From: Mustelus asterias
Lineage: Eukaryota
Direction: 5' to 3'
Length of the DNA stretch: 64,000 nucleotides
NCBI RefSeq assembly: GCF_964213995.1
Contig: NC_135830.1
Span: 12,772,001-12,836,000, forward strand
Part shown: in pieces, positions 18,155 to 62,937 of the stretch
Position numbering within the stretch: the stretch's first letter is position 1
How the letters are laid out: every line of letters begins with the position of its first letter
Program-made: the position numbers and the translations under genes
Notes under the pieces: generated by a model
What the model was told of the DNA's origin: nothing
The model's input: the letters and a program-made list of their open reading frames with translations, nothing else
Databases searched by the model: none

Positions 18155-18227
18155 CGAACCAGCCAGGAGTTGAATCGGGAATCTTCTAATCCGTAATCAG
18201 ATGCATTACCCACTGTGCCACTGATCC
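18155..18227 (-). pseudogene. tRNA-Arg(ACG) pseudogene
   Basis: Reverse complement GGATCAGTGGCACAGTGGGTAATGCATCTGATTACGGATTAGAAGATTCCCGATTCAACTCCTGGCTGGTTCG is colinear with vertebrate Arg-ACG but has many substitutions. Confidence 0.8.
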
Positions 18228-18479
18228 ACCTGCTAACTTACAGCACTTGTTACATATTGGTCCAACGCTTAGAAATCGGGCAGAAACTTTGTCAAAGCGA
18301 TTCGTTTACTTGTGAGGAAAAGTTCCATCATTGAAATTTCCATTATTCGTTTACATCATCCCTAATAGCCCTTGAATTGACTTGCTGAGTTAATCTGCCG
18401 TGTTGGAATTAAAGACAATAACACTGCCCAACCACTAACCACTCCTCTCAGTGAATCAACTATCGAATATGACTTGAGG

Positions 18480-18765
18480 TGGAGATGCCCAGCTTTGGGC
18501 GAGGGTAGGCACAGTAGGACGTCTCACAACACCAGGTTAAAGTCCATCAGGTTTAATGAATACACGAGCTTTCAGAGCGCTGCACCTTCATGAGGTGAGT
18601 GATTCCAAATAAACCTTGTTTTGATTTAATTTCATTTATTATCGTCACATGTATTAACATACAGTGAAAAGTATTGTTTCTTGCGCGCTATGCAGACAAA
18701 ACATACCGTTCATAGAGAAAGAAATCTGTTGGACTTTAGCCTGGTGTTGTGAGGCTTCTTACTGA
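18480..18765. mobile_element. Second Penelope-derived inverted-repeat element, interrupted by a Rex-like 3' tail (~18620-18725)
   Basis: Arms ctcacaacaccaggttaaagtcca / tggactttagcctggtgttgtgag; the insert matches 3165-3270. Confidence 0.6.
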
Positions 18766-19655
18766 ATATTACTTGAACACAATATTTTGTACGTATATGC
18801 CATTAGCTCTTACATATGCCTCAATATGCATTCAGAAAAAAATAAATAGAAGTGCTGAAATTCTCTGCACTCTGCGCAGGAAAAGAGATGCTCCTATTTT
18901 GACTCAGCACACATTTTATCAGTTCGTGCAGTGGCAACAAGAGCAGGTTAGATGCTAGAAATCCTGCAGCGAATAACTCACCTCCTGACTCGCAGAGCCT
19001 ATCCACCATCGACAAGGTAAAAGTCAGGAATGTGATGGAATGCTCCCCACTTGTCTGGATTATGCAGGAACTCACCACATATACCTTAGTCGGTAGTTTC
19101 CAAACCCAAGAGAGCTGCAACCTGGAAGTTCCCCTCCAAGCCAATCACATCCTGACTTGGAAATATACCGCTGTTTCTTCACTGTCGCAGGGACAAGATC
19201 CTGGAATAGCCGCCCCGCCCCCCCCCAACACCTCCACTCCCCCGCCCCCGCCGCCTGTCGCCCCAGTAACATAACGATGCATATACCTACAGTAATAGAC
19301 TGCAGCGGTTCAAGAAGACAGTTCACCACCACCTTCTCAAAGGTAATTAATGATGAGTAATAAACGCCGGCCTAGCCAGTGACACTCACATCTCGTTACT
19401 GAATAAAAAGACACATCCAGCCAGCTGCCGGGACAATCATGGGGTCCCTTGTACAGGTGAATTGTGATAAAATGGATATCCCCTTACAAGTCAACCCTTT
19501 TGAAAATGTTGTTCCAGTGAGGTTGTCGTTCTGATGGATTCCCTACAGTTTGTGCTCAGGCTCTCAAACCAAACCCCATGTGAACCAACCCCGCCATCTG
19601 CACCGGAAAGAAATGAACAAAACCTGCGGAATGGGCAATAGAAAGCAACATCAAA

Positions 19656-19744
19656 GGGCTCATCCGGGACTTGAACCGGGGCCCTCTCGAACACTTTGAC
19701 CTCAAATCCCCAAAACGAAAATCATGACCCGAGACGAACGAGCC
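19656..19744 (-). pseudogene. Intron-containing tRNA-Pro(TGG) pseudogene
   Basis: GGCTCGTT...TTTGGG + ~17 nt insert + TTCGAGAGGGCCCCGGTTCAAGTCCCGGATGAGCCC. Confidence 0.78.
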
Positions 19745-19784
19745 TACGCTGTCGGTGGGTTCATCAAAATATAGCTCATTTGCT

Positions 19785-21228
19785 TTTCCCAGAGGATTGG
19801 AGACTAGCCAATGTTGTTCCTTTGTTTAAGAAGGGTAGCAAGAATAATCCAGGTAATTACAGGCTGGTGAGCCTTACGTCAGTGAAAGGGAAATTATTGG
19901 TGAGTGTTCTTCGATACAGGATTTATTCCGACTTGGAAATAAGTGGACGTATTAGTGAGAGGCAACATGGTTTGGTGAAGCGGAGGTCATGTCTCACTAA
20001 CTTGATCGAGTTATTCGAGGAAGTGACGAAAATGATTGATTAGAGTAGGGCAGTTGATGTTGTCTACGTGGACGTCGGTAAGGCATTTGACAAGGTTCCT
20101 CATGGCAGACTGGTGCAGAAGGTGAAGACGCATGAGATCAGAGGTGAGCTGGCAAGGTGGACACAGAACTGGTTCGTTCATAGTAGACAGAAGGTAGCAG
20201 TGGAAGGGTGCGTTCCTGAATGAAGGGCTGTGACAAGTGGCGTTCCTCAAGGATCAATATTGGGACCTTTGCTGTTTGTAATATATATATATATATAAAT
20301 GATTTGGAGGAAAATGTAACTGACTTCATTAGTAAGTCTGCGGATGACACAAAGGTTGGGGGATTTACGGATAGCGATGAGGACCATCAGAGGATACAGC
20401 AGGATGTAGATCGGTTGGAGACTTGGGCGGAGAAATGGCAGATGGAGTTCAATCCGGAGAAATGTGAGGTAATGCTTTTTGGAAGGTCAAGTACAGATAG
20501 GAAATACACAGTAGATGGCAGAAACCTTAAGAGCGTTGATAGGCAGAGGGATCTGGGTGTACAGGTGGAGAAGGTAGTCAAGAAGGCATACGGCACTATT
20601 GTCTTCATCAGCCGGGACACTGAGTTTAAAAAGTGGCAAGTCATGTGGCAGTTTTATTGAACCATAGTTAGCCCGCACTTGGAATATAGTGTTCAATTCT
20701 GGTAGCCACACTACCAGACGAATGTGGAGGCTTTGACGAGGGTACAGAAAATATTTACCAGGGTGTTATATGGCATGGAGGGCATCAGCTATGAGGAGAG
20801 TTTGGAGAAACTTGGTTGGTTCTCACTGGAACAACGGAGGTTGAGAGGCTACCTGATAGAAGTCTACAAGATTATGAGGGGCATGGACAGAGTGGATAGT
20901 AAGAAGCTTTCTCCCAGGGTCCAAGAGTCAATTACGAGGGGGCATAGGTTTAAGGTGCGAGGGGCAAGTTTTAAAGGAGATATACGAGGCAATGTTTTTA
21001 CACAGAGAATAGTGGGTACCTGGAATTCACTGCCGGGGGAAATAGTGGAAGCAGATGCGATAGTGACTTTCAAGAGGCATCTTGATAAATACATGAATAG
21101 GATGGGAATAGAGTGATATGATTCCCCGGAAGGGTAGGGGGGCTTTTGTTCTGTCGGGCAGCATGGTCGGTGAAGGCTTGGAGGGCCGACGGGCCTGTTC
21201 CTGTGCTGGAATTTTCTTTGTTCTTTTG
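19785..21228 (+). mobile_element. Decayed CR1 LINE
   Basis: RT pieces in ORFs 19696, 20220 and 20724, broken by stops and frameshifts; CR1 3' UTR. Confidence 0.92.
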
Positions 21229-21839
21229 ATCCAAAGCATTTCAATCATCTCTGGTAAAAAACGAAATCGTTGAACAAACTCAGCACGTCCACATTTGAGG
21301 ACTGAAAGCTCCAGGAAAATATTCACCAACGTTGCAAACTTCACTGTTTGGAACTGGGCGCTTTTGTGTACAAAGTACACGTTACCCAATGCACTCCACG
21401 AAGAATGCGGAGCGCTAAGCTGAACGAACGAAAATATTTGCAGCACACTAATAGTAAGAGCAGTTTTGATAATCGTAATAATAGATCTCGTGAAGCAATA
21501 TAAGTTGGCTGTCAATGCTAAAATAATATTTCTGTTTCGACATTTGATCTTTTAGCTACATTTTTTCAAAATTGTTACCGGCCGCGGTTGTGAGTCTGGA
21601 ATTCGCCCCGATACGAAAGCCAACCCGGCATCCCATTGCCGTCTGGTGGCGGCGGCATGGAACTACAAGGTGCAGCTTTCTTCCTAACGTGAGTCTTCGG
21701 GACTCAAATTTGTGTCCAAACATTTCGGATCATAAATTCTACCCCGATTTTATGCCATTTCATTTCAAATTTTAGACTGCACTGGAGTGCGGAATATTTT
21801 CACCTGAGCCCACCAACTCCAAAGACAACCCTTTTCCAG

Positions 21840-21934
21840 ATATGGGTCATGGAGATTCTATCACTCAGCCGCTGTCCTCAACAGTAAAGACAGAAGGAGA
21901 TTCGGTGAGTTTACAATGTATCGAAAAGATATAA
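21840..21934 (+). pseudogene. Truncated V relic (L2 + FR1 only)
   Basis: ttttccag| DMGHGDSITQPLSSTVKTEGDSVSLQCIEKI*. No FR2, FR3 or RSS follows. A possible damaged leader lies at 21657-21688 (donor GTGAGT). Confidence 0.8.
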
Positions 21935-22269
21935 TTAACTCTGTGGAAAGGGAAAAATTCTGTATGTATCAACAGAGTCGCTTTTGTATCTTCTTGTTTG
22001 TAAGCAAAATAAACCAAATTAATCTGTTGATCCCTGGCACTATTCTGATTATTAACCAAACTCCTTAAGACGATAAGATATAGGAGCAGGATTAGACGAT
22101 TGGGCCCATCAGGTCTGCTCCGCTATTCAATTGTGGCTGCGAAGTTTCTCAAACCCATTCTCCCGCCTTTACTCGGAACCTTTGATTCTCTTACAGATCA
22201 AGAACCTATCAACTCAGTGACCTGGCCTCCACAGTCTTCTGTGGCATTGAATTCCATAGATTCACCAGG

Positions 22270-23790
22270 GAGTCATGGAGTCATAGAGGTTTACAGCATG
22301 GCACTGGGCCCTTCGGCCCAACTTGTCCATGCCGCCCCTTTATTTGACCTCTAAGCAAGTCCCAATTGCCCCGTTTGGCCCATATACCTCTCTACCCATC
22401 ATACCCATGTAACTCTCTAAACACATTTTAAAAGACAAAATTGTACCCGCCTCCACTATTACCTCTGGTAGCTTGTTCCAGACACTCACCATTCTCTGTG
22501 TGAACAAATTGCACCTCTGGACCCTTTTGTTTCTTTCCCCCCTCACCTTAAAGCTCTGCCCTCTAGTTTTAAACTCCCCGACCTTTGGGAAAAGATAATG
22601 ACTTTCCAGCTGGTCTATGTCCCTCATCATTATATACACCTCTAGAAGATCAGCCCTCAGCCTCCTACGTTTAAGGGAAAAAAGTCCCAGTCGATCCAGC
22701 CTCCCCTTATAACTCAAACCATCAAGTCCCAGTAGCATCCTAGTACTTTTTTTCTGCTCTCTTTCTAGTTTTATAACGTCTGTCCTATAATAGGGTGACC
22801 AAAACTGTACACAGTATTCCATGTGTGGCCTTACCAATGTCTTGTACAACTTCAACAAGACGTCCCAGCTCCTGCATTCAATATTCTGACCAATGAAACC
22901 AAGCATCCAAGCCCGCCGAATGCCTTCTTCATCACTCTGTGACTCCACTTTCAAGGAGCTATGAACCTGTACCCCTTGATCTCTTTGTTCGATTACTCTC
23001 CACAACGCCTAATCATTAACTGAGTAAGTCCTGCCCTGGTTCGATCTGACAAAATGCATCATAGAACCATAGAAAATTACAGCTCAGAAACAGGCCTTTT
23101 GGCCCTTCTTGTCTGTGCCGAACCATTTTATGCCTAGTCCCACTGACCTGCACTTGGACCATATCCCTCCACACCCCTCTCATCCATGAACCCGTCCAAG
23201 TTTTTCTTAAATGTTAAAAGTGACCCCGCATTTACCACTTTATCACCTTGCATTTATCTGAATTGAACTCCATCTGCCATTCGTCAGCCCACTGGCCCAA
23301 TTGATCAAGATCCCGTTGCAATCCGAGATAACCTTCCTCACTGTCCACTATGTCAGCAATCTTGGTGTCATCTACAAACTTTATAATCATGCCTCCTAAA
23401 TTCTCATTCAAATCATTAATATAAATGACAAATAATAGTGGACCCATCACTGACCCCTGAGGCATACCGCTGATCACAGGCCTGCAATTTGAAAAGCAAC
23501 CCTCTACAACCACCCCGTTTTCTGTCATCAAGCCAGTTATGCATCCATTTCACTACCTTACGCTAGATCCCGTGAGATTTAACCTTATGCAACAATCTAC
23601 CATTTGGTACCTTGTCAAATGCCTTGCTAATGTTCATGTAGACAACGTCAACTGCACTGCCCTCGTCTACCACCCACTGGCTGAAGCAACTCCTCCTCAT
23701 CTCGGTTCTAAAGATTCGTCCCTTTACTCTGAGGATGTGTCTTTGCATCCTAATTTCTCCTACTCATGGAAACATCTTCCACAGCTCCGC
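22270..23790 (-). mobile_element. Nested CR1 fragments (a younger 3' fragment is inserted at ~23060-23240)
   Basis: ORFs 22340-23005, 23232-23531 and 23563-23748 carry CR1 RT motifs. Confidence 0.9.
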
Positions 23791-24339
23791 ACGTTTTCCG
23801 AAGTTTTGGTATTCATTCGACTTCGTCGCAACCAGGGTTTGAACAAAGAATTCCAGCAATGATGCTCGCAGGATCACCATCATTTTACGATATAAATAGG
23901 AAAAGTAACAAACACAGTGTTCAAGGAGCACCAATTCAGGTGTCTGGGCAGCATTTATGTCTTAGTGTATATTGGAGTAAACATTGAAAATAGTCAACAG
24001 CCAAATGCGAACTTGCATTAAAAAACACATTTGTCAGCTGAAGACGCCAAATTAAAGCCCAGTTTGGGTGTGGGGCGTGGGGGAGGATGGGTTAGCAGTT
24101 GTGGGAGGGGGGGGGGGGTCACAAACTCACGTGACATTATCACTAGAGCCTGTATGGATGGTAGACTGATGAAGTCACAATAGACTCCCCCTTGCCCTCC
24201 CCCCAATCACACGCACACAGACAAACTGACACACACTCACTCACACATTGCAATCAACGGAACAGAGCTCGGATTGCCTCTCTCTTTCTCAATCTCTGAC
24301 TCCGTCCATTCTTATTCACTGAAAGAGATTCAGTCAGAT

Positions 24340-24840
24340 ATGTTTCTGACCATTCTGGCGGCGCTTTTGAACAGTAAGTACCGGATAACGTTCATCAAGC
24401 CAGACAAACATATTAATACACATAGATGGCATTTTAATGAACCATCAGGAATATCTATGTGAGGCGTAGATGGGAGGTTCCACAAACTGTCACAGGTACA
24501 AGAAAATTTACAATAACTCTTGATATTTAATTCCTCTATCTTTACAGGTGGACTATGCGCAGATCCAGTTACGCAGTCACCGGTGAAAATAACCGCATCA
24601 GAAGGGGGTTCGGTGCAGTTAGATTGTAACTATACAGGCAAGGGTATGAGCTACATGCAATGGTATCAGCAGAAACCGGCACAGGCACTGAGATGGATTA
24701 TTACCACAATATTAGTACTGAAGGAAAATAAAGTTTCAGGACGATATCTGGCGGCTTCTGACACGTCTAAACAGAATGGTTACCTCAAAATCAGCGGCCT
24801 CATTCTGGAGGACGTGGCGGTCTATTACTGTGCAGTGAGG
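24340..24840 (+). CDS. Intact TCR alpha/delta V gene segment (leader exon 24340-24373, V exon 24548-24840)
   Basis: GTAAGT donor and tttacag acceptor, phase 1. Spliced product: MFLTILAALLNSGLCA-DPVTQSP..VQLDCNY..MQWYQQKP..GRY..LKISGLILEDVAVYYCAVR. Confidence 0.93.
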
Positions 24841-24879
24841 CACAGCGTTAGACTACAGCTAGAACCCCGTACAAAAAAC
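24841..24879 (+). promoter_or_regulatory. 23-RSS
   Basis: CACAGCG + 23 bp + ACAAAAAAC. Confidence 0.92.
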
Positions 24880-24954
24880 CTCAGCAAGTATTTACAGCTC
24901 GACTAAGCTGGGTTCACGAATGTAGTCAGGTCGCTTTAATGGGCAGTTTTTTTT

Positions 24955-25230
24955 CTGTCGTTGTTTAGATACACAAAGAAGCAGTTTGGAAAATATCTGG
25001 ACTTATGTCCGTGCTGCGATTCATATAATAAATTTAAACGCGGAACATTTAACACCCAGCAGAAGGATGCACTCAGAAGTGGAATTAACATAGCAGGAAA
25101 TTAATGGCTGTTCTTCCAGAAATTTTATCTGAGATGAATCTAAGGACCCTGACTCCTCGGCACTCGTTGCTTTCATGAAATACAGAATGGAGTAAACAAA
25201 TGAGATGTAGAACACGCGCCTCAGAAAGTC
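24955..25230 (-). pseudogene. Decayed V-like relic, paralogous to 59511-59780
   Basis: Shares ttctacatct(c/t)atttgtt, ctg(g/a)aagaacagcc and ccaaactgcttctttg with the + copy; reads ..EESGS..FLEEQPLISCY.. Confidence 0.55.
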
Positions 25231-45710: not shown

Positions 45711-45826
45711 ACCTTGGGGATGCTGTTGGTCCGTTAATTGTAAACTTTGTAATCAGGACAAACTGAGACACCAGATTCGAACAACATTTGGGTATTAAGA
45801 GTCGGACAAGGGTTATCACAGCAGTA

Positions 45827-45897
45827 GCCTGGCTACCTTAGTCGGTTGCATGGCAGATGTAATTGCAGAGTCTTGGGTTCAAGTTCCACGTTAGGCG
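45827..45897 (+). pseudogene. tRNA-Lys relic
   Basis: gcctggctaccttagtcggt..gggttcaagttccacgttaggcg. Confidence 0.65.
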
Positions 45898-47315: not shown

Positions 47316-47380
47316 ACACCTAACTGGGGCTCAAACCCTGAAATTAAAGCTTCATGTTTTACCGACTGAGCTAGACAGGA
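47316..47380 (-). pseudogene. tRNA-Lys relic (inverted paralog of 45827-45897)
   Basis: + strand ggggctcaaaccc..taccgactgagctag. Confidence 0.55.
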
Positions 47381-47997
47381 ACACGGAAGAAGCGGCACTC
47401 CATATCCTAAAATATGTGAAGACTAACTTGTTTTTTGTCCATTTGTTGTCTCAGTTTATTCTGATTGCAAAGTTTGCAATTAATCGAACGACAGAATCCC
47501 CAAGGTTTCAATGTATTCCTCTCAATCATTAATAATTTCATTCACATCCTCCACTTCTTAGTTTCATCTCCATCCTAACATAGCAAACTCCTCTTACATG
47601 TTTCGCCTTAATATTTTTGTTCCAAGTCCCCCGGCTAGGTGAAATCAACGTTTCGGTATGGACACTGTAAAACTGTCTCCCAGTTACAGAATTTTTAATC
47701 AGATTACTTCTGCTTATTCTGAACTATAGAAAGAACAGACTCATCCCACTGAATATCTCCTCCCTGGACAACCGCCTCATCACAGAAATCAATCCAGAGA
47801 ATTTAGCTCACACAGACACAGCAGAAAAAAAGAGCAAAAAATGAACAGTGATAGATGCACAGACAGAGAGACTGAGGGGAGAAAAGAATGGGACAGTTAT
47901 AGAGACAAAGTGAGACAGACAGTGACAGAGATTGGGATGGACACACAACCCACGAATGAATCATAATAAACACACAGCCAGCTGTCCGAATTACAAG

Positions 47998-49500
47998 CAT
48001 AGAGTCATGGAGGTTTACAGCATGGAAACAGGCCCTTCGCCCCACATTGTCCATGCCGCCACTTTTTTAAACACGAAACTTGTCCCAATTGCCTGTGTTG
48101 GGCCCATATCCCTCTATAACCATCTTACCCATTTAACTGTCTAAACACTTTTTAAAAGACAAACCTGTACCCGCCTCTCCTACTACATCTGGCAGCTTAT
48201 TCCAGACACTCACCATCCTCCATGTGAAAAGATTGACCATCTGGGCACTTTGTATCTCTCCCCTCTCACCTTAAACCTATGCCCTCCAGTTTTAGACTCC
48301 CCTACCTTTGAGAAAATTTTGACTACCTAGCTGATCTATTCCCCTCATTATTTTATAGACCTCTATAAGATCACCCTCAGTCTTCCATGCTCCAGAGAAA
48401 AAAGTCCAAGTCTATCCATCCTCTCCTTATAACTCAAAATATCAATCCCGGCATCATCCTAGTAAATCTTGTCTGCATTCCTTCTAGTTTAATAATATCC
48501 CTTCTATAACAGGGTGGCCAGAGCTGTACACAGTATTCCAAGTGTGGCCTTACCAATGTCTTGTACAACTTCAACAAGACGTCCCAACTCCTCTATTCAA
48601 TGTTCTGGCCAATGAAACCAAGCATGCTGAATGCCTTCTCCACCACCGTCCACCTGTGACTAAACTTTGAAGGAGCGATGAACTGTACCCCAAGATATCT
48701 TTTTTTCTAAAACTCTCACCAACGCCCGACCATTAATTGAGCAAGTCCTGTCCTGGTTCGTTCTACCAAAATGCATCACCTCGCATTCATCTAAACTAAA
48801 CTCCATTTGCCATTCGTCAGCCCACTAGCCCAATTGATCAAGATCCCGCTGCAATTCTCGATAACCTTCTTCACTGTGCATAATGCCTCCAATCTTGGTG
48901 TCATCTGCAAACTTACTAACCATGCCTGCTAAATTCTCATCAAAATCATTAAAATAAATGACAAATAACAGTGGAACCAGGACCGACCCTGAGGCACACC
49001 GCTGGTGACAGGCCTCCAATTTGAAAGCAACTCTCTACAACCACCCTCTGTCTTCTATCATCAAGCCAATTTTACATCCATTTGGCTACCTCACGCGGAA
49101 TACCGTAAGATTAAACTTATGCAACAACCTGCCATGCGGTATCTTGTCAAATGCCTCCTAAAGTCCATGCAGACAACATCAATTACACTGCCCTCACCGG
49201 CCTTCTTGGTTACCCTTTCAAAAAACTCAATCAAATTTGTGAGACATGATTTTCCACTCACAGAACCATGCTGATCAGTCCTTGCCTCTCTAAATGCCTC
49301 CAGATCCTGTTTCTCAGACTACCTTCGAACAACGTACGCACTACAGATGTGAGGCTCAGCAGCCTGTAGCTCCCAGGCTTCTCCCTGCAACCCTTTTTAA
49401 ACAAAAGCACGGCATTTCCCACCCTCCAGTCTTCAGGCAGATCACCTGTGGCTTTCGATGATTCAGATATCTCTGCAAGGGGACCCGCAATTTCCCCGAG
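47998..49500 (-). mobile_element. Older CR1 LINE fragment
   Basis: RT motifs in ORFs 48825 and 49258; same 3' UTR type as 22270. Confidence 0.9.
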
Positions 49501-49524
49501 TCTCCCATAACGTGGGTGGTCGTC

Positions 49525-52153: not shown

Positions 52154-52351
52154 CGAAGGAATGAGGTCCTCTCAATTCGTGTCTGCAAGCAGAGTCAGCC
52201 ATTGAAAATGTTTTGATTTACTTGTGAGCCTGCTATGGCGTTAGAATGTGTTCAGGTTCTCAACCCAAAGCCCATGTGAAGCAATCCCGCCGTGTACACG
52301 GAAAATAAATTTACAGAACCAGTACCTTGTCCAATTCAAAACAGCAGAAAT

Positions 52352-52430
52352 GGATTTGAACCCGGGACCTCTCGCAAGCTTGCGAATTTCAACACCCAAA
52401 GCGAGAATCATACCCCTAGACCAACGAGCC
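52352..52430 (-). pseudogene. Intron-containing tRNA-Pro(TGG) with the 3' acceptor strand missing
   Basis: GGCTCGTTGGTCTAGGGGTATGATTCTCGCTTTGGG [tgttgaaattcgcaagct, 52394-52377] TGCGAGAGGTCCCGGGTTCAAATCC, then unrelated sequence. Confidence 0.9.
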
Positions 52431-52811
52431 TTCGTTGCAAATATTTGCCAAATTATTATATTTTCATTGTCATCCAAAATTGATCTTACATCTGCAGTGA
52501 AAGTTGAAAATGCTGGAATCGCTCAGAAAGTCAGAGAGTGTGTGTGCACAGAGAAACACAGCTCATCTTTCACCTCTATACCCTTTAACTGACACTGGGG
52601 ATGCTTAAAGATGTAGAACGTTTCGAGCAAATGAGATGCAGGAGGGAGGAAACATAACATCCTGTCGGGTGGAAGTCAGGAGAGGTGAGATGAGGGAAAC
52701 AAAGAAACACAAAGCGATTAACCACAGAATGAGGCCGTTCGGAAGTTCTTTCCAGGACACACATGTGCTGTGGATAAAGGGGAACCGGTGAATGTACTGT
52801 ACATAGATTAC

Positions 52812-53430
52812 ACTGGATTGCTTGCCTTTATCGGACGGGGCATAGAGTTTAAAAGTTGGGGTCTGATGTTGCAGTTGTATAGAACGTTGGTTTGGCCGCA
52901 TTTGGAATACTGCACCCAGTTCTGGTTGCCACACTACCGGAAGGACATAGAGGCTTCACAGAGAGTGCAGAGGAGGTTTACCAGGATGCTGCCTGGTATG
53001 GAAGGGCTTAGTTATGAGGAGAGATTGGGTAAACTGGAGTTGTTCTCACTGGAAAGACGGAGGATGAGGGGTGACCGAATAGAGGTGTATAAAGTTATGA
53101 TAGGCATAGTTAGGGTGAACGGTGGGAAGCTTTTTCACAGGTCGGTGGTGACGTTCACGAGGGGTCATAGGTTCAAGGTGAGGGGGGGAGGTTTAACACG
53201 GATATCAGAAGGACGTATTTTACACAGAGGGAGGTGGGGGCCTGGAATGCGCTGCCGGGCAAGGTGGTGGAGGCGGACACACTGGGAACGTTTAAGACTT
53301 ATCTAGATAGCCACATGAACGGAGTGGGAATGGAGGGATACAAAAGAATGGTCTAGTTTGGACCAGAGAGCGGCGCGGGCTTGGAGGGCCGAAGGGCCTG
53401 TTCCTGTGCTGTATTGTTCTTTGTTCTTTG
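52812..53430 (+). mobile_element. CR1 3' fragment
   Basis: PHLEYCTQFWLPHY..QRRFTRMLPG; tail ttctttgttctttg. Confidence 0.9.
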
Positions 53431-54074
53431 GAGCCACATTGAGTTTTGCAAGTTCCACTCAGTAATATGGAAACATAGGAATCAGGAGCTCAAAGAGGCA
53501 AATTCAGCCCTTCGAGCCTGCTCCGTCATTCAATCAGATCATGGCTGATCTCTCCCTGGTCTCAAGTCCACTTCCCCATTGTTTCCTTAAAAAGAGGTCA
53601 AGTCCACTTCCCCATCTGTTCCTCATTTCCCTTTAAACATTTTTTGAAAACATCAGAAATATATCTATCTCCTTTTGAAACCATTCAATCTTTCAGAACC
53701 CACCGCGTTCTGGGGCAGCGAATTCCAGACACTCGCCACTCTGCGAGAAGTACGTCCTCCTCATTTCAGATTTAAATCCACCGCCTCTCAATCTATACCT
53801 GCGTCTTCTTGTTCTACATTGCCCCATTGAGGAATCATTTGGTCGACGTTTATTCCATTTGTTCCCTTTAGACTCTTGTACACCTCGATAACTTCAGCAA
53901 CTTGTGAGACTATTTCACCTCGCTGTCGACGTCATGTCCTGGCAAATACAGTGGGTGTTGTCATTCGCTGAAAGAACCAAGTATGTCCCTCTAAACAGGA
54001 TATTCTGAAGGAAATACTTGTCGTTGATGAAAATGATCTGAGATGAAAATAATAAGCAGAGAGATGTATTTTAA

Positions 54075-54368
54075 AGTTTATTTAGTCGTGTTACAAGTAG
54101 GCTTGCATTAACATTTCAATGAAGTTGCTGTGAAAATCTGCTGGTCGCCACACTTGGCTGCCTGTTTAGGTAATTAGCAGAAGAATTAGCATAGCCAATC
54201 CAACTACCGTGCGCATCTTTGCACTCTGGGAAGAAACCAGAGCATTCGCAGGAAACCCACACAGAAACACGAAGAACGTGCAGGCCCCACACAGACAGTG
54301 ATCCAAGCCAAGTATCGAACGCTTGTCTTTCGCACTGTGAGGTAACAGTATCAAACACGACACCACCG
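54075..54368 (-). mobile_element. V-domain SINE
   Basis: Diverged copy of the same core. Confidence 0.7.
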
Positions 54369-54957
54369 TCCCATAGGGTACGTCAGTTTAAAAATACAGT
54401 TCACCCGTTACCCTTGGAGTTAAGTGGTTTGTGTTCAGTACCCACCCCTCCCGCTCCCTCCCCCCCCCCACCCGCCCACCCGCCCCCACCGTGGAGGAAC
54501 AGTGCCAATGAAACAGTTGTTGGGGGAAAGGAGAATGTGTGGAAGGAGTGCAGTTGCTCCTATAGGGGGAACATACGGAAACACCGGCTGAATGACTGGC
54601 TGCCGATATAAGCAACAGTATTGCAAACAGTGAGACTATTCCCGGCCCAGGGGTTAAATTCTGGATAAAAGCAAATTACTGCGGATGCTGGAATCTCTGA
54701 AAGTGAGTCATCTGGATTCGAAGCTACAGCTCTTTTCTCTCCTTACAGATGCTACCTGACCTGCTGAGGTTTTCCAACATTTTCTCATTTGGTTCCAGGG
54801 ACAAATGTGACGAATTTAAATTTTCCAAGTGAAGTTCAAATCCTGTCCTGTACGCTTCCCATCTTCCTCATTGTGACTATGTTTTTAGGGAAAGTCATTT
54901 GAATTAAAGCAATGGGTACGAAGATGATCATCTCATTACCAATGTGTCACGTCAGCT

Positions 54958-55021
54958 TCCCTGAGAGCATAATGATCAGGATTCGGCGCAGTGGCCCCAC
55001 GTTCAATTCCCAGTCATGGAG
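54958..55021 (+). pseudogene. tRNA-Glu relic
   Basis: tccctga..aggattcggcgc..gttcaattcccagtcatgga, with an internal deletion. Confidence 0.5.
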
Positions 55022-55279
55022 TCAATCATCTTTTGTTCAATTCTTCATTTACTGAAAACACGACTCACAGCGCCTGTGAAGGGAGAAACAAGGTTAATCT
55101 TCCAGCTGGATGAGTTTATATCAGAGCTGGGAAAATCAAACGTGTAACTTTGACAATAAACTCTGAAGAAGAGTCAGATGATACACACGACGCACATGTC
55201 AAATCTTACCATTTTCAAGGTGCATATTTTAACTTCCTTCCCCTGTGACTGAGGGAAGTGCAGTTGATCTAGTTTGTTT

Positions 55280-57220
55280 TGTTCGAGCAAAGCACTGAGA
55301 AGGTCCCACAAGGGAGACTGATTGAGAATATAGAAGCACTTGGAATTCAGGAAACTGGGCGAGATGGATCCGAAAATGTCTTCATAATAGGACACATAGG
55401 GCAGTGGTAGAAGTCTGTTCGAATGAATGGAGGTTAGAGCAAACTGGCCTACTATAGGTTTCAGTGCTGAGACGCTTTTTGTTTGTTACATGCATAAATA
55501 ATATAGATGATAATTTGAGGGGAATTATAAGCAAGTTTGCAGCTGGTACAAAGATTGTTGGCGTGGTTAATATTGAAGACGAAAACCCTATGTTCAAGGA
55601 AGATCTCGATAGGTTGGTCAGATGGAACCAACAGTGGCAGATGGTGTATAAACCGGATAAGTGCGAGGTGATGCACTTTGGAAGAAATAATAACACAGGT
55701 GACTATTTAATGAATCGCAGGACATTAGGAAGCTCAGAGGAACATGTGGATTAGGAGTACTTATAAACTGATCCCTGAAGGTAGCAGAGCAGTTGAATAG
55801 GCTAGCTACGACGGCATAAGGGGCACCTTGTTTTTATCAGTCGTGGCATAGAATATAAGGGCAAGGAGTTAACGTTGGAGTTGTACAGCGCGGTGGTTAG
55901 GCCAGAGCTGGAGTACTGTGCGCAGTTCTGGCCAGCTCACTGTAGGAAGGATGTGATTATACTAACAGGGGAACAGAGCAGATTCACCAAGATTTTTCCT
56001 GGGACGGAACATTTGAGCGAAAAGGGGGAACAAAGAACAAAGAACAGTACAGCACAGGAAACAGGCCCTTCGGCCCTCCAAGCCTGTGCCGCTCCTTGGT
56101 CCAACTAGACCAATCGTTTGTACCCCTCCATTCCCAGGCTGCTCATGTGACTATCCAGGTAAGTCTTAAACGATGTCAGCGTGCCTGCCTCCACCACCCT
56201 ACTTGGCAGCGCATTCCAGGCCCCCACCACCCTCTGTGTAAAAAACGTACCTCTGATATCCGAGTTATACTTCGCCCCTCTCAGCATGAGTCCGTGACCC
56301 CTCGTGATCGTCACCTCCGACCTGGGAAAAAGCTTCCCACTGTTCACCCTATCTATACCCTTCATAATCTTGTACACCTCTATTAGATCTCCCCTCATTC
56401 TCCGTCTTTCCAAGGAGAACAACCCCAGTCTACCCAATCTCTCCTCATAGCTAAGACCCTCCATACCAGGCAACATCCTGGTAAACCTTCTCTGCACTCT
56501 CTCCAATGCCTCCACGTCCTTCTGGTAGTGCGGCGACCAGAACTGGACGCAGTACTCCAAATGTGACCTAACCAGCGTTCTATACAGCTGCACCATCAGA
56601 CTCCAGCTTTTATACTCTATACCCCATCCTATAAAGGCAAGCATACCATATGCCTTCTTCACCACCTTCTCCACCTGTGTTGCCACCTTCAAGGATTTGT
56701 GGACTTGCACACCTAGGTCCCTCTGTGTTTCTATACTCCTGATGACTCTGCCATTTATTGTATAACTCCTCCCTACATTATTTCTTCCAAAATGTGGATA
56801 GTGGATAGGGTTGGATTATTTTCCTTTGAACAGAGAAGGCTGAGGGATTGCGGGGGCTGATTGTGGCGTATAAGTTTGAGGTTCATGGACAGGGTGAAGG
56901 GAAAGCAGCTCTTCCCCTTTGTTGAGAAGTTAATCACGAGGGGGCATAGTTTTAAGCTAAGGGGCTAGAGATTCGGCAAATATTTTTTTTTCACGAAGAG
57001 GTTGGGGAAATATGTACTACAGCGCCTGGGAAGGTATTATTGGAGGCCGGAAAAGTTACAAACTTTAAAAAGTATCTGGATGAACACTTGAAAAATCATA
57101 GCATTCAAGGATATGGGACATGTGCTAGAAAATGGGATTAGCGCGATGTTCGTGGCAGTTATTGTTGTTGTACACTCGATGGGCCAAACCGTCTCTACTG
57201 CGCTGTACGACGCTATGACT
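55280..57220 (+). mobile_element. Old CR1 (+) interrupted by a younger CR1 3' fragment (-, ~56028-56794)
   Basis: ORFs 55464 and 55875 (+) and 56105-56710 (-); the + element resumes at ~56800. Confidence 0.88.
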
Positions 57221-57608
57221 AAGCACAGTTCACAGTGAGGAGAAATGCAACATGTCCTCTGTTAGTGACCAACGCCTCTGCTGATAATTCGACCTATCAA
57301 GGGAAAAAAGGCACAACCAAACTGAGGAGAAACTGTGATAATGCGGGGATTGCGGGAAGGGATTCAAGCAACATAAAGTAAGAGACAAATGAATGGGGAA
57401 AGAAGTGCGAATGAAAATCACATCCTTACATCGGAAGAACAGAGTCTGATACCAGCCAATCAGATTGCCGAAAACCCCAGCATCTGACGGTTTCTCTGGT
57501 ACATCTTACATTCGGGGAATATTGAAGTTGTTGATTCGCTTCGTGCCTTTCTGCTGTGAGATGTGCTATATTTTCCGATTGACATTTTTATTGTATTACA
57601 CGGGGCAA

Positions 57609-58028
57609 ATGAATCTGTTCCATTTTATTATGGTTCTACTAATTTGTAAGTGCAAGAAATTTACTCTATAACGTGTGGAGACTGCTATTTAAATACATTT
57701 TGCTCCAGTGCCTAATTGACTAAATGTTTTTTTTTATAGATCGGTGTCGTTCGGACTAAGTTTCACAAACTCCCATAGCCAGAACAGCCCAGAGCGGGGA
57801 TTCGGTGCGGCTAAACTGCAGCTATGATATGTCCAGCATTTACAGAATGCATCGGTACAGACAAAAGCCCGGTCAGGGTCTGCAGTGGATAATACGTAGA
57901 TTCTCGGATGGCAAAGAGAGAAAGGACCGATTCGAATTGGAACTTTCCACTGCGGACAAATCGAGCCAGTTGATAATTGAAAACACGGAGAGCACGGATA
58001 CCGCTTTATATTACTGTGCGATAGAGCC
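57609..58028 (+). pseudogene. TCR alpha/delta-like V pseudogene (leader 57609-57645, V exon 57740-58028)
   Basis: Leader MNLFHFIMVLLI|GTAAGT; acceptor tttatag. The exon reads YRCRSD*VSQTP..VRLNCSY..MHRYRQKPGQGLQWI..DRF..DTALYYCAIE, with TAA at 57757-57759 and the conserved Trp replaced by Arg. Confidence 0.92.
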
Positions 58029-58067
58029 CACACTGAGAGGAAAGACGGCAGTCACTGTCCAAAAACC
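58029..58067 (+). promoter_or_regulatory. 23-RSS
   Basis: CACACTG + 23 bp + CCAAAAACC. Confidence 0.88.
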
Positions 58068-58321
58068 TCACGCCTGTTTACAGTTGCTGTAGCAATCAAA
58101 TAAACAGCACACTGCAGGCAAGACATGTCAGAACGAGAACAGGAAATGGAGTATGTGAGCGCGGTTGCCAGGGCTTTGCAATTCCTGACAGCGGCTTTGC
58201 TCAGACATATTGACAGTCAGGGCATAATTTATCAGATTGAAGAAGCAGTCACTCAGTGAGAGTGGGGTTTGTGATGAGAAAATCATCCGCATTCTTTAAT
58301 TTAAGGATGATACTGCATTGT

Positions 58322-58620
58322 CTGACAGTCTGAGGATTCGGGGTAGACCATTTAGGACGGAGGTGAGGAGACATTTCTTCACCCAAAGAGTGGTGAGCCT
58401 GTGGAATTCATTACCACAGGAAGTAGTTGATGGCAAAACATTGAATGCATTCAAGAGGCGGCTAGAATTAGCACTTTGGGCAAATGAGATCAAAGGTTGT
58501 GGGGATAAAGCAGGATTAGGCTTTTGAGTTGGACGATCAGCTATGATCGTAATGAAAGGCGGAGCAGGCTGAAAGGGCCGAATGGCCTCCTCCTCTTCCT
58601 TTTTCTATGTTTCTATGTCT
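58322..58620 (+). mobile_element. CR1 3' end fragment
   Basis: RRHFFTQRVVSLWNSLP; tail ttctatgtttctatg. Confidence 0.85.
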
Positions 58621-59461
58621 CGAATCAGACATTTGGTCTATGCCCAAATACCGCAAGACCTGGACAATATTCAGGTTTGATCTGATAAGCAAGCAACACT
58701 CACGTCGCAAAAGTTCCAGACCATGATCATCTCTTAAAAGAGAGGATCTAACCTACGTTCCTTGATGTTCAATGGCATTGCCATTGCTGAATCCTCCCCC
58801 CTGCTCCCGCCTCCCCACCTCCCCCCCGCCCCCGCCCCCCATCCCCCCTCCCCCTACATCCTAGGAGTCGACCGAAAATTGAACTGGACCCAGGAATATT
58901 AATACAGTGGCTACCAGAGCAGATCCAATTAATCCTGCGGCGAGTAACACGCCTCGTGACTCCCCAAAGCCTGTCCAGCATCTATAAGGTAGAAGTCAGG
59001 AGTGTGATGGAATACTCTCTGCTTGCTTGGATGAATGTAGCTCCAACAAAACTCAATAAGGTCGACAAGATACATGACAAAGCAGCCCACTTGATTGCTA
59101 CCCATTCCATAAACATCCATTCCTGCCACCACAGACGAACAGTGGCAACCGTGTGCACCACCTACAAAATAGACAGCAGCAACTCACCAAGGTTTTTTTT
59201 AGATCGCAAAATCCAAACACACGAAGGACAAGGGCAGCAGGCACATGGGAACACGACAACCTAGAGGTTCCCTTCCAAGTTATTCCACATCCTTACTTGG
59301 AAATATATCGCTATTCCTTCACGGTCACTGGGTCAACACCCTGGAACTCCCTCACTAACAGCACATGGGTGTACCTGCATCTCGGGCAGCGCTTCAAGAA
59401 GGCAGCTCACCACCAGACAATACACTAATGTCAGCTGTGAGAATCGACTATCTTCGTGCTG

Positions 59462-59780
59462 ATGGGTAAGCATCTGTGTCCCGGATTTATAATAATAGTC
59501 GTGTTGTTGGGTGAGTCTGTGTGGCAGTTATTCTACATCTTATTTGTTAAACACTTAAGATTTTTATCCAATTAGTATTTAGTATACTCCAAGAGTACCG
59601 GAGATTCGGTGTCCGGGGGGTTATTTGAGCTAGCAATTCTGAAAGAACAGCCTGTAATTTTCTGCCATATTTTCACCTGAGTTCACCCTTCTGATGATAT
59701 TCCTGGTTCGTGCTTACTATGTAAATCGCGGCATGGGGATTTCCCAAACTGCTTCTTTGCCGATCTCAGTCAAGACAAAG
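59462..59780 (+). pseudogene. Decayed V-like gene: leader exon 59462-59510, intron, V-like FR1 from 59583
   Basis: MGKHLCPGFIIIVVLL-G|GTGAGT (phase 1); tttag| VYSKSTGDSVSGGLFELAILKEQPVIFCHIFT*; out-of-frame FPKLLL further on; no RSS. Confidence 0.62.
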
Positions 59781-60046
59781 AGGCGGGGGGAGATGGGGGG
59801 CGGGGGAAGGGGGGGGGGGGGGGCGGGTGGGGGATCAGCTAGGGTAAATGCATAGGGTGATGGGGATAGGGCCTGGGTAGGATTGTTGTCGGTGCAGACG
59901 CGATGGGCCGAATGGTCTCTTCTGCACTGTAGGGATTCCATGATTCTATGCTGAGTGCTTTCAACAATTTTGGCTTTTAAAGAGATTTCTGAGCTGCTTT
60001 GGATACAAACAAATGAGTGAGACTTTGGTGAAAGGACTGCAAGTGT

Positions 60047-60136
60047 AGACTCATTGGTAGAGTGGAACGATTCTTGCTCTTGGTCTTTGAGGTCAAAGTA
60101 TGCGAGAAGTCTAGACTTCACATGCGGGCCGAGCTG
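60047..60136 (+). pseudogene. Highly decayed intron-containing tRNA-Pro relic (paralog of 19656-19744)
   Basis: gattcttgctcttgg..tttgaggtcaaagt..tgcgaga; shares the intron core with the 19.7-kb copy. Confidence 0.6.
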
Positions 60137-61192
60137 TTTGATGTTTATTGACTCATCCGCAGGTTTTGTGCATTTCTTTCAGGTGCAGACAGCGGGATTG
60201 GTTAATATGTGGTCTGGTTTGAAATCCTGAGCACAAACTGCAGGGAATCCATCAGCACAACACGCTCACGAGAAAAAAACATTTTCAAAAGGGTTGACTT
60301 GGCAGCGGATATTCAGTTTGTCACCATTCACCTGTTCAAGGGATCCCATAATTGCCCGTTCTTTTTCTTTTATTCATTAACGAGATGTGGGTGTCACTGG
60401 CTGGGCCTGCATTTATTACCCATCACTAATTACCCTTGACAAGGTGGTGGTGAGCTGCCTTCTTGAGCAGTGCAGTGTATTGGTGTAGGTACATCCATAG
60501 TGCTGTTCGTGAAGGGGTACGGGTTGTTTTCCCTGGTCATTATATTTCCAAGTCAAGGTCATTGATTGCCTTGAGGGGAACTTGCAAGTGGTTGCGGTCT
60601 TGGATTTGAAAACAGCTGTCTGGGGTGTATTTGGTGAGTTCCTGCATCATCCAAATAAGTGGGGAGTATTCACTGACACCCGACTTGTGCCTTGCAGATG
60701 GTGGACAGGTTTTGGGGAGTCAGGTGAGTTACTCGCTGCAGGATTCCCAGCCTCTGATCTGCTCGTGAAGACACTGCACGAACTGATAATATGTGTGCTG
60801 AGTCAAAATAGGAGCATTTCTTTTCCTGCTCAGTGTGCAGAGAATTTTCAACACTTCTATTTCTTTGTTCTGGATACGTGTTGAGGAATATGTAAGAGCT
60901 AATGGCACATGTGTGTCAAATATTATGTTCAAGTAATATTCGATCGTTGATTCACTGAGGGGAGCGGTGAGTGCTTGGGTAGCCTTATTGTATTGAGACA
61001 GCAGTTTGAATTCCAACACGGCAGGTTAACTCAGCAATTCAATTCAAGGGCAATTAGGGATGATTGTAAATGAATAAAGACACTCTGAATGATGAAACTT
61101 TTCCTCACAAGTGAACGCAGAATTTTTTTTAAAAATCTGCCTGATTTCGAAACATTGGACCAACATGTAACATCTTCCACAAGGATGGGTGT

Positions 61193-61265
61193 GGGCCAGT
61201 GGCGTAATGAGTAACGGCTCTCCCTGCATATCAGGCGATTCCAAGTTCGACTCCTGGTTAGTTCG
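61193..61265 (+). pseudogene. tRNA-Arg(ACG)-derived pseudogene (paralog of 18155-18227)
   Basis: GGGCCAGTGGCGTAATG..GATTCCAAGTTCGACTCCTGGTTAGTTCG; the anticodon arm is destroyed. Confidence 0.72.
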
Positions 61266-61707
61266 GCGTGAAACTTCAAAATAAGTTCACAAATTCCATG
61301 TTACTTTGGATAAAAAATGTCTGCAATAACTTTCGACCTCTTCAGGCAGATACTGACGAACTTTAGTCCGCTTCTCTGGAGAAATTCATGTTAGCTAATT
61401 GCTTTTCAACAGAAACTGATTATTTTAAGTTAAATTCTGCTGAAAGATTTTCATCAAGTAAGTTTAAGACATTAAGTAAATGTTAATCTCAATTACGTTT
61501 TGTTCATAATCCAAAATGTTTGAGAGAATTTACACAATTTTGTATAATTTGCGTCATCAAATTCAGCATTTCTGATTTTGAAGAAAGCATGTGAGGCCGG
61601 AGTCAGAGCAAAGATAATATGGCTGCAACATCGAGATTCAGGTAATGTTTACCAACAAACTGAAATCAAACATATTCCTCTCACCCTGCATGGGAAACCT
61701 CAATGAA

Positions 61708-61778
61708 TGTTCCTTCCTGGTTAGGAACCAGGAACCGCCTGCGTATTAGGTGAATGTGATAACCAAGTGACAGCATAG
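61708..61778 (-). pseudogene. tRNA-Val relic
   Basis: ttaggtgaatgtgataacca core; the flanks are duplicated with 62865-63200. Confidence 0.55.
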
Positions 61779-62864
61779 CGCCGCCAATCGGCCTGACTAC
61801 AATGTTCAACTCCACTGTGTTGCTGCAGGTTCTCGCGGTTAGATTGAGGGCCCATGTCACTCAATACAAGAACATATCCGTTACTTTGAACCTGACGTCT
61901 CAACTTATCTTGTACTTCAAAATTAAAAAGCGATCGTCCGGCAAATGTCTAAGGGAGCAATGATTTCTGCTCAATCATTAATGCAGCATTCTCATCTTCC
62001 GTCCAATAATTTCAACCGTTTATATCCAGTATTGGTTCGTTATTCAACATTTAATATCAATACATGTATTTAACCAAATGCCCGCATTCTGAATTGAATA
62101 TCTCTGAAATATAAAATATTGAATTGCAAACATGACTGGCCATCAAAATAAATCGATTCACTGTGTAATACACATCCTATGGTACTGATTTGAGAATGGC
62201 CATATTTTTTATAGAAATCAAATATCTTCCAAGGGAAGAGATTTATGAATGTTCTGTTATTTATACTTGATCCTTCTTTATTCTGTTTGTCAAACATTGT
62301 GGCATCTAAATCTCGTTCATCTGCAGGAAGTCCAGCAGGTCCGCACTGATTCGCGATTTCCTCATCTGCCTGAGTGCTTGTTTCCTATTTCTTTATCATG
62401 AAGAACAATTTTAAAAATGATGCTTCGAAGAAATGTGCGCCATTACCTCTAATTCAATTGCAGCTTCACTTCTGTTTGCCTTCATGAGGAGGCAATACTA
62501 TCAGACATGTTTCAGATGGTGATTAGATATGTTAGTCTGCATCCATAAACCCATTAAATTCTGTTGTGGGCTGAACGAGGAGCGAATATGTATGCAAACC
62601 ATACAAACATTTATTTGCTGCCATAGCGTCCTAAAATACAGCATTTCTGATTTTCCTCAAAGCATTTGAGTTGGTGTAACCTCGAGGTTCGCTGAATGTT
62701 GAATCATGCAGAAACCAAAAGAGAAAATGCTGGAAAGTCTCAGCAGGTCTGGCAGCATCTGTAAGGAGACAAAAGAGCTGACGTTTCGAGTCCAGTTGAC
62801 TCCTTGTCAAATCTTTATTAAATCATGCAGACTTCGCCAAAGCTTAACGAGAAGGATCCAAAAG

Positions 62865-62937
62865 TGCTTGCGCCCTGTTTCAAACCGGGGTCTTTCCGCG
62901 TGTGAGGCGAATGTAATAACCACGACACTACAGAAAC
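62865..62937 (-). pseudogene. tRNA-Val(CAC), full length, probable pseudogene
   Basis: Reverse complement GTTTCTGTAGTGTCGTGGTTATTACATTCGCCTCACACGCGGAAAGACCCCGGTTTGAAACAGGGCGCAAGCA; box B and the stems have mismatches. Confidence 0.8.

Follow-up and report, generated by a model that had tools for sequence, protein, structure and literature searches.

A mostly decayed tRNA gene cluster probably co-duplicated with V segments in the TCR alpha/delta field of Mustelus asterias

The stretch of DNA analysed here (64 kb, hereafter the window) belongs to the 20-Mb chromosome C71 of Mustelus asterias, where TCR alpha/delta V segments form a field that extends over at least 12 Mb. Within this field, the window carries 30 tRNA loci, genes as well as relics, which represent 10 isotypes; 27 of the loci are broken. 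The observation made in a preliminary description, which had reported more than 20 mostly dead tRNA loci among V segments, is thus confirmed, while its interpretation is partly supported. The best reading, to which we give a probability of about three in four, is that the tRNA cluster is a passenger that was co-duplicated with the V segments.

A J-alpha array and C-alpha lie 5.6 Mb downstream of the window on the same chromosome, so the window is no orphon, which the preliminary description had named as a possibility. The field also contains, judged by likeness to database models, a NAR-TCR-type V pair in L044 and an IgH-like V in L010. The J-alpha array consists of 34 J motifs at C71:18.37−18.42 Mb, most with a 12-RSS, followed by a C exon bearing the tra signature (PMC10322711), and C-delta exons at C71:7.14, 11.04 and 12.27 Mb bear the trd signature. 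A comparable multi-megabase TCR alpha/delta V field, the AgRC, occupies 8.2−17.1 Mb of white shark chromosome 27 (Flajnik et al. 2025, PMC12227049). There, V segments of either orientation occur together with NAR-TCR cassettes and with V of IgH-like type, and C71 has the same parts. The accessible text and supplements make no mention of tRNA. The M. asterias genome has 19 constant exons of TCR delta and two units of J-alpha and C-alpha, in contrast to the single constant gene given for each of delta and alpha in stingray and catshark (PMC12227049, Table S1).

The V segments that had been described as an array are real but sparse, six in 64 kb, with two intact and four broken. Both V13k (12758−13351, minus strand) and V24k (24340−24879, plus strand) combine a Cys-Trp-Cys V-set exon with an in-frame leader exon. 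V13k has an RSS with a 22-nt spacer at 12795; V24k has its leader at 24340−24373, its V exon from 24549 and an RSS with a 23-nt spacer at 24841, and a PDB search with it returned antibody constructs only. RSS were scored against the heptamer/nonamer consensus. The broken segments comprise a likely pseudogene of TCR alpha/delta type at 29−410 (plus), with the second Cys changed to Phe and a degenerate nonamer; V8k at 7925−8410 (plus), also a likely pseudogene, with a 23-nt spacer RSS at 8372 and a splice acceptor lost by comparison with its L048 paralogue; V11k at approximately 10990−11460 (minus), a pseudogene with a stop codon and an internal deletion; and V58k at 57609−58067 (plus), a pseudogene with an in-frame TAA at 57757, the conserved Trp lost and a 23-nt spacer RSS at 58029.

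The 30 tRNA loci were identified by nhmmer with queries from the same genome, all at 10 bits or more, although four are weak (11.5−12.6 bits). The queries span 14 isotypes (without Gly, His, Phe, Ser, Trp, Asp and Sec), making the window and background counts lower bounds. Removing two window-derived queries and adding 11 others left the same 30 loci. Reversed DNA (964 kb) gave no match at 8 bits or above, and the best tRNA decoy with the enlarged query set reached 9.5 bits in 744 kb. Seven SINE heads were kept separate, outside the 30. ARAGORN calls six tRNA genes in the window and Rfam seven; relaxed ARAGORN produced many false calls, and 150 kb of flanking sequence scanned at the Rfam gathering threshold yielded no match, indicating that such a scan misses relics. 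All eight isotypes named in the preliminary description were recovered, but its list was incomplete, as Cys and Thr are also present. Its placement of most loci between V24k and V58k holds (24 of 30, with two to the left and four to the right).

Val is the most frequent isotype, with seven relics at 30780−30852 (plus, 30 bits), 34934−34993 (minus, with deletions, weak at 11.5 bits), 39580−39652 (minus, 24 bits), 40617−40690 (minus, 23 bits), 44628−44699 (minus, CAC, 30 bits), 61708−61780 (minus, 21 bits) and 62865−62937 (minus, CAC, damaged, Rfam 29.9 bits). The six Glu loci lie at 30519−30590 (plus, TTC, damaged, ARAGORN, Rfam 39.9 bits), 34561−34631 (plus, weak, 11.6 bits), 38480−38549 (plus, 42 bits), 39063−39134 (minus, weak, 11.7 bits), 41526−41597 (plus, Rfam 34.1 bits) and 54958−55021 (plus, weak, 12.6 bits). 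The third of these has a 2-nt deletion in the anticodon loop; ARAGORN called it Lys(TTT) from 38479, an assignment we rejected as it is a Glu body minus 2 nt. Pro is represented four times, by a relic with an intron remnant at 19657−19744 (minus), its inverted duplicate at 60048−60135 (plus, 23 bits), a Pro(TGG) relic with intron at 33433−33521 (minus, 32 bits) and a Pro(TGG) at 52342−52430 (minus, 65 bits) with an 18-nt intron and its 3′ acceptor strand lost. Similarly, the Arg(ACG) relic at 18155−18227 (minus; ARAGORN, Rfam 42.1 bits, nhmmer 39 bits) has an inverted duplicate at 61193−61265 (plus, 30 bits), and the two Lys relics at 45827−45897 (plus, 15 bits) and 47315−47380 (minus, 17 bits) are inverted partners. 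There are three Gln loci, at 31987−32058 (plus, CTG), 32387−32421 (plus, a 5′ fragment, 16 bits) and 32710−32781 (minus, 36 bits), two Leu(AAG) genes at 35565−35646 and 36626−36707 (both plus, both called by ARAGORN and Rfam), two Asn relics at 28611−28685 (plus, 36 bits) and 42580−42653 (minus, 23 bits), and single relics of Cys (43061−43132, minus, 27 bits) and Thr(TGT) (44160−44236, minus, 22 bits).

Only the two Leu(AAG) genes have intact boxes, a cloverleaf, a T-run and conservation above the flank. The first, with a T4 at +14, is unit 1 of a 1061-bp tandem duplication; the second has an identical body and flanks 91% alike. Across window−window and window−C23 pairs the Leu bodies are 100% identical against 0.77−0.91 for the flanks, though gene conversion instead of selection could be the source of this identity. 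Minimum-energy folds were informative for Leu only. Gln(CTG) at 31987 is borderline: it was called by ARAGORN and scores 59.2 bits with Rfam, but it has a weak acceptor stem with three G-U pairs, no T4 within 45 nt and a body identity (0.94) equal to that of its flank (0.94). The other 27 loci have broken stems, boxes or anticodons and body identity below flank. Overall, the bodies of the relics have changed no more slowly than the sequence beside them (identity 0.790 for bodies versus 0.820 for flanks over 69 non-independent pairs), and the relics are unconstrained.

This pattern bears on the proposal, also made in the preliminary description, that surviving tRNA genes, bound by TFIIIC and Pol III, could serve as barriers or open-chromatin sites and thereby govern how accessible the V segments are to RAG or AID. 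An intact V does lie upstream of the two intact Leu(AAG) genes, at distances of 10.7 and 11.8 kb, many intact tRNA copies occur throughout the field, and the accessible part of PMC3258141 describes a boundary function of tRNA genes in yeast and a putative one in human T cells; intact Pol III genes in a regulated locus could act likewise. Such boundaries require occupied genes, however, whereas 27 of the 30 loci are broken and unconstrained. Furthermore, tRNA−V spacing and orientation vary, the same cluster is V-free on C23, and of 20 V-anchored stretches six have no tRNA trace and 15 no ARAGORN call within 5 kb. The papers listed on insulators in antigen receptor loci concern CTCF, and among the matches listed Tcra appears with 'tRNA genes' only in one general review. 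We consider a regulatory role of this kind very unlikely; a V-specific role is not supported, nor do these results show receptor genes to be controlled by tRNA loci.

The preliminary description had attributed the spread of the tRNA loci to DNA duplication instead of retroposition, and this is borne out. The longest A run within 30 nt downstream is four across all 30 loci, and flanks are common to paralogues for 25 loci in a first comparison and 29 after a further one. A tRNA retropseudogene or tRNA-SINE origin was rejected on these grounds and because the Pro introns are kept. CCA follows the Lys relic at 45827, yet its flanks are shared, and a pre-tRNA−LINE chimera at Pro 52342 was dropped, as both flanks align to Pro 33433. 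The loci lie in direct and inverted multi-kilobase blocks of 65−99% identity across 12 Mb, several of which combine a V segment with tRNA relics. One such block (19343−32424), with the order Pro relic, V24k, Asn, Glu, Val and Gln, is collinear on C138 and C108 at 94−99% identity; another (57416−64000), with V58k, Pro, Arg, Val and Val, recurs in inverted form at C71:8.26 Mb (94%), and a further copy, 89% identical, lies downstream of the window at a distance of about 60 kb. The window also matches C71:16.5 Mb at 80−89% over about 6 kb and C71:8.5 Mb at 69% over 2.9 kb.

The suggestion that V and tRNA relics were duplicated together is further sustained by the Pro relic, found 0.8−4.9 kb upstream of V24k, on the opposite strand, in the window and in 10 of 20 paralogues. 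Within V24k subfamilies, V identity (0.95−1.00) and that of the Pro relic plus flank (0.96−1.00) move together; between subfamilies the values are 0.82−0.91 for V versus 0.58−0.76 for the relic region. The two measures correlate across 11 loci (Mantel rho 0.33, p 0.01).

Could this arrangement reflect misassembly, or simply the density of tRNA-SINEs? There are many near-identical unplaced scaffolds, and one duplicate pair on C71 (L088/L089) is 99.8% identical. The window, on the other hand, is free of any N, and the V−tRNA order is repeated at 94−99% identity on two other scaffolds. SINE heads had been set aside, and none of 27 random 10-kb stretches on other contigs contained tRNA loci, compared with five positive stretches among 19 sampled along C71 on a grid with 1-Mb steps (Fisher p = 0.0085). 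A comparable relic density genome-wide, which the preliminary description had said would count against it, is thus not what was found, and an artefact, already largely refuted, is extremely improbable. On the grid, tRNA traces are confined to 4.5−16.5 Mb, save for a Leu and a Val at 18.97 Mb; the J−C regions had no tRNA in nine stretches on C71 or four on C546.

Chromosome C23 carries a twin cluster: 26 stretches, some of them selected for their tRNA matches, contain 89 tRNA-like loci and no V or C matches. Leu- and Lys-block trees do not decide between C23 and C71 as the source (p-AU 0.139 and 0.044). Two 7TM-like ORFs on C23 are the same as those seen as further passengers in the flanks L042, L046, L049 and L054. 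These ORFs are presumably GPR139-like; Pfam gave no family for the one of L135.

Instead of travelling as passengers, the tRNA genes might themselves promote duplication, by offering short stretches of homology or by stalling replication, and so have helped the V field to expand. Some alignments end near tRNA bodies (29709−30594, for example, ends at Glu), and pure tRNA arrays on C7, C11 and C16 also amplify in tandem. Yet most blocks continue on either side of the tRNA loci into the flanks, generic repeats, which make up about 36% of the window, offer far longer homology, and V pairs without tRNA duplicate too (L111 and L103), so that a driving role seems improbable. On the passenger reading, the segmental duplications that multiplied the V segments at the DNA level would also have copied a mixed tRNA cluster repeatedly, most tRNA copies decaying afterwards. 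The engine was presumably unequal crossing-over and inversion between repeats, with selection probably acting on V diversity and, for ordinary translation, on a minority of tRNA genes, while surplus copies would die. Passenger status does not account for the cluster's entry into the V field, and the few intact genes may have a role; the presence of relics in 14 of the 20 V-anchored stretches, all 20 being paralogues and thus not independent, and the confinement of tRNA traces on the grid were counted against a passenger-only reading.

Later passenger amplification is compatible with an ancient linkage, in which the jawed-vertebrate ancestor had a tRNA cluster beside TCR alpha/delta from which both the shark field and human 14q11.2 descend. 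The human tRNA cluster is about 1 Mb from TRA/TRD, outside the V array, and its genes are not known to alternate with V segments. The presence there of Leu-AAG and Pro, as stated in the preliminary description, is real: in the accessible part of PMC10791582, the matches listed for chr14:20.61−20.68 Mb include Pro-AGG (two), Pro-TGG (two), Leu-AAG, Leu-TAG, Thr-TGT (three) and Tyr-GTA (five). Pro, Leu-NAG and Thr-TGT are thus common to those listed matches, on the TRA/TRD chromosome arm, and to the shark field. The elasmobranch antigen receptor complex is also reported to be syntenic with human chr14 via PSMB5, and deep blocks at 65−75% identity show the cluster to be old in this shark lineage. 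However, none of 93 Tyr loci is on C71, an overlap of three in four families is expected by chance (P 0.20−0.37), and C14 has a compact Tyr-Pro-Arg-Thr cluster (L146) that is no less plausible as the counterpart. That the cluster moves between chromosomes is evident from its C23 twin, and the trees give no direction. Moreover, the human cluster spans 75 kb and, according to the accessible text, is mostly Pol III-occupied and Tyr-rich (PMC10791582), whereas that of the shark is scattered across 12 Mb, largely dead and without Tyr, and its Pro genes have introns. We therefore regard common descent as possible but doubtful.

Other systems offer partial parallels. An elasmobranch tRNA/histone supercluster has been likened to human chr6 and zebrafish chr4 (bioRxiv 10.1101/2025.06.08.657570); its accessible text describes abundant clustered shark and ray tRNA loci, many with introns, beside a proliferating gene family. 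There the partner is histone genes, a type represented in this genome by C85, and the term 'T cell receptor' does not occur in that text. A histone/xMHC-type identity for the present cluster was rejected: none of the best 150 of 731 histone candidates is on C71, the clusters lying on C85 and C5. In the chicken BG region, unrelated genes (kinesin, lectin) recur within duplicated immune units, although these passengers are protein genes and tRNA is absent from the accessible text (PMC4046983), as it is from the accessible parts of PMC5931798 and PMC9772353. In the literature searched, we found no report of tRNA genes within a shark TCR locus, although tRNA positions or constant-gene counts published elsewhere could bear on novelty.

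The field and like scaffolds hold 54−61% of the genome's best-matching Leu-NAG, Glu and Val-NAC copies, with 57 of 94 Leu, 48 of 89 Glu and 36 of 64 Val exact core matches located either on C71 itself or on a scaffold that also matches the V24k family or C-delta. Haplotype duplicates such as L088/L089 may inflate these counts, and the patterns derive from C71-type copies. With over half of such copies in the field, the immune region is a major tRNA gene store, and tRNA dosage would vary with immune-locus copy number. Joining V24k to the C71 J-alpha array by deletion would excise eight Leu, eight Glu and 10 Pro core matches from the allele. A far-reaching scenario would have an ancestral cluster kept beside TCR alpha/delta from shark to human 14q11.2, expanded in sharks, as the V field grew, until it held most copies of several tRNA families, with active Pol III genes organizing chromatin over the 12-Mb V field and each long V−J deletion costing the allele of the T cell concerned some working tRNA genes; we regard it as improbable. 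tRNA clusters at TCR alpha/delta across vertebrates could be a cheap marker for the age of the complex layout, and neutral relics could date V duplications and so reveal how the V field grew.

The window occupies positions 12,772,001–12,836,000 of C71, a chromosome of 20.4 Mb in a genome of 3.68 Gb; its nearest named proteins come from sharks, and CR1-type LINE ORFs occupy much of it. There are six V segments, of which V13k (near 13 kb) and V24k (24340–24879) have a leader in frame and an RSS, while the remaining four are broken (V58k, 57609–58067, has a stop at 57757). A leader of the V24k family is fused with a TCR alpha constant domain in a database model. The preliminary description had considered that the scaffold could be an orphon unlinked to J and C segments. 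Against this, C71 holds 34 J motifs followed by a C-alpha exon at 18.37–18.42 Mb, as well as C-delta genes at 7.14, 11.04 and 12.27 Mb, and its constant exons satisfy the signatures that PMC10322711 describes for tra and trd. A NAR-TCR-type cassette on the minus strand lies 2–7 kb upstream of the window (V at L044:2591–2854, supporting V at 7737–7997, in the numbering of that flanking stretch), and an IgH-like V is found at C71 9.5 Mb. This layout agrees with the elasmobranch antigen receptor complex (AgRC) described in PMC12227049. Judged by sequence, the window V segments are thus assigned to the TCR alpha/delta type, linked to J and C on C71. Other features of the window include mutually inverted CR1 fragments (754–2152 and 5048–6443, 88–92% complementary) flanking another LINE fragment, a 45-bp minisatellite immediately downstream of V24k (25125–25754), and a long hairpin within a dispersed repeat (17517–17679) with sub-threshold matches to miRNA families.

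ARAGORN called six tRNA genes in the window and Rfam seven. Searching with nhmmer, using tRNA genes of the same genome as queries, yielded 30 loci of at least 10 bits, with seven SINE heads kept out of the count; such counts are lower bounds, because six isotypes (Gly, His, Phe, Ser, Trp and Asp) and Sec had no query. No decoy reached 8 bits in 964 kb, and the identical 30 loci were recovered once window-derived queries were left out (top decoy 9.5 bits in 744 kb). More than 20 tRNA genes or relics of eight isotypes, mostly between the V segments at 24.3 and 57.6 kb, had been proposed; they are real, and in fact comprise ten isotypes (Val 7, Glu 6, Pro 4, Gln 3, Leu 2, Asn 2, Lys 2, Arg 2, Cys 1 and Thr 1), with 24 of the 30 loci located from 24.5 to 57.7 kb, between V24k and V58k. 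The cluster is also mostly dead, as suggested. Only the two Leu-AAG genes are intact: they share one sequence, which a copy on another contig, C23, also has; they show a cloverleaf fold and a T-run at +14, and their bodies are 100% identical against 0.77–0.91 for the flanks in the closest comparisons. Gln-CTG is a borderline gene. The other bodies are no better conserved than their flanks (mean identity 0.790 versus 0.820 in paralogous alignments of 69 non-independent pairs), a quicker decay that CpG loss in GC-rich DNA could explain.

The loci spread by DNA duplication rather than retroposition, as first proposed. None of the 30 has an A-tail, the Pro relics retain introns, and flanks are common to paralogues at 29. 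The Leu genes form a 1061-bp tandem duplication, and an Arg-Pro block at 18–20 kb has an inverted copy at 60–61.5 kb. Some duplicated blocks include V segments: the block Pro-V24k-Asn-Glu-Val-Gln recurs on contigs C138 and C108 at 94–99% identity, and V58k-Pro-Arg-Val recurs at C71:8.26 Mb (94%). Among 20 stretches centred on V24k paralogues, picked from the 150 listed matches, 14 carried tRNA relics and six had none; in ten, an opposite-strand Pro relic lies upstream of the V. Identity of this relic tracks V identity within subfamilies and drops below it between subfamilies. As the preliminary description envisaged, tRNA genes and V segments were duplicated jointly, as the shared blocks and the Pro relics show.

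Equal relic density throughout the genome would offer a trivial explanation for the association. However, tRNA loci were absent from all 27 random stretches on other contigs, whereas five of 19 grid stretches on C71 were positive, all within 4.5–16.5 Mb (p = 0.0085). Per 10 kb, 4.7 loci were counted in the window and 1.1 across the 200 kb flanking it (22 loci in all); none were seen in six further C71 stretches at 16.9–18.1 Mb, nor in either J-C region. Density is well above background, yet patchy. Of the exact matches to tRNA core patterns, 57/94 for Leu-NAG, 48/89 for Glu and 36/64 for Val-NAC are located either on C71 or on a scaffold that also has a match to the V24k family or to C-delta. 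The patterns derive from C71-type copies, a match is not equivalent to a functional gene, and the proportion on unplaced scaffolds may be raised by haplotype duplicates. Counting chromosome-scale contigs alone, the C71 share is 17/30 for Leu, 14/30 for Glu and just 3/13 for Val. Two stretches 1.227 Mb apart, at C71:11.145 and 12.372 Mb (L088 and L089), match at 99.8% along 9.8 kb, reflecting either a very recent duplication or a haplotype duplication; the identity between C-delta stretches separated by that distance is 97.6%.

C-delta itself is present in many copies: 19 constant Ig exons, three on C71 and 16 on unplaced scaffolds, all open and 83–100% identical to the query; L090, L091 and L188 are among the stretches concerned. 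One, examined in detail, has two J segments upstream plus connecting and TM exons. Table S1 of PMC12227049 gives a single C-delta for stingray and for catshark; some of the 19 may be allelic duplicates, though three sit on C71. J-alpha/C-alpha units occur at C71:18.37–18.43 Mb (L033, L173–L177) and C546:200–242 kb (L032, L178–L181), with 34 and 49 J motifs seen, respectively. They are probably two loci, not alleles, because their C exons show 73% and 98% identity to the same database protein.

The tRNA cluster can exist independently of V segments, because a region on C23 (12.10–12.53 Mb) carries the same isotypes, with flanks 65–80% like those of the window, and the approximately 260 of 430 kb examined there gave no match to V or C. 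Here, 26 stretches (L087, L135–L139, L149–L168), some chosen on tRNA matches, held 89 tRNA loci, along with two 7TM-like ORFs of the same family as those flanking the window. Trees do not give the direction of copying between C23 and C71. Tandem arrays of other kinds were found for Tyr on C7 (77 Tyr-GTA matches at 40.24–40.36 Mb, L128, period near 1445 bp), Lys/Thr on C16 and Cys on C11. C85 is a histone/tRNA region in which tRNA genes for Pro, Arg and Leu recur, and an intron-containing Arg-TCG lies there as well; histone clusters were also seen on C102, C103 and C5:144–148 Mb. Introns of 13–18 nt were present in 90 of the first 100 listed among 178 genome-wide tRNA-Pro matches, covering all three anticodons; examples are window 52342–52430 and 33433–33521, L006:2526–2616 and L121.

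It is less likely than not that the cluster represents an ancient linkage akin to that at human 14q11.2. The rows listed from PMC10791582 place Pro, Leu-NAG, Thr-TGT and Tyr tRNA genes at human chr14 20.61–20.68 Mb, and three of these four families also occur in the shark field. However, this overlap is attainable by chance (P 0.20–0.37), Tyr is absent from C71, and a cluster on C14 also resembles the human one in content, a span of 400 bp there holding genes for Tyr, Pro-TGG, Arg and Thr-TGT (L146:5223–5601; C14:65.108 Mb).

The text and supplements of the AgRC paper (PMC12227049) do not mention tRNA, and in the literature searched we met no description of tRNA genes inside the TCR locus of a shark. 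The Squalomix preprint (bioRxiv 10.1101/2025.06.08.657570) describes abundant, clustered and intron-rich tRNA loci, but their partner is histones rather than TCR V segments. Boundary function is on record for tRNA genes (PMC3258141), in keeping with the suggestion that surviving genes shape V accessibility. This role is nevertheless unsupported here: 27 of the 30 window loci are unconstrained, ARAGORN calls nothing in 15 of the 20 stretches anchored on V, and tRNA-to-V geometry varies. We conclude that co-amplification of the tRNA cluster with the TCR V field is real, apparently undescribed and most likely passive.
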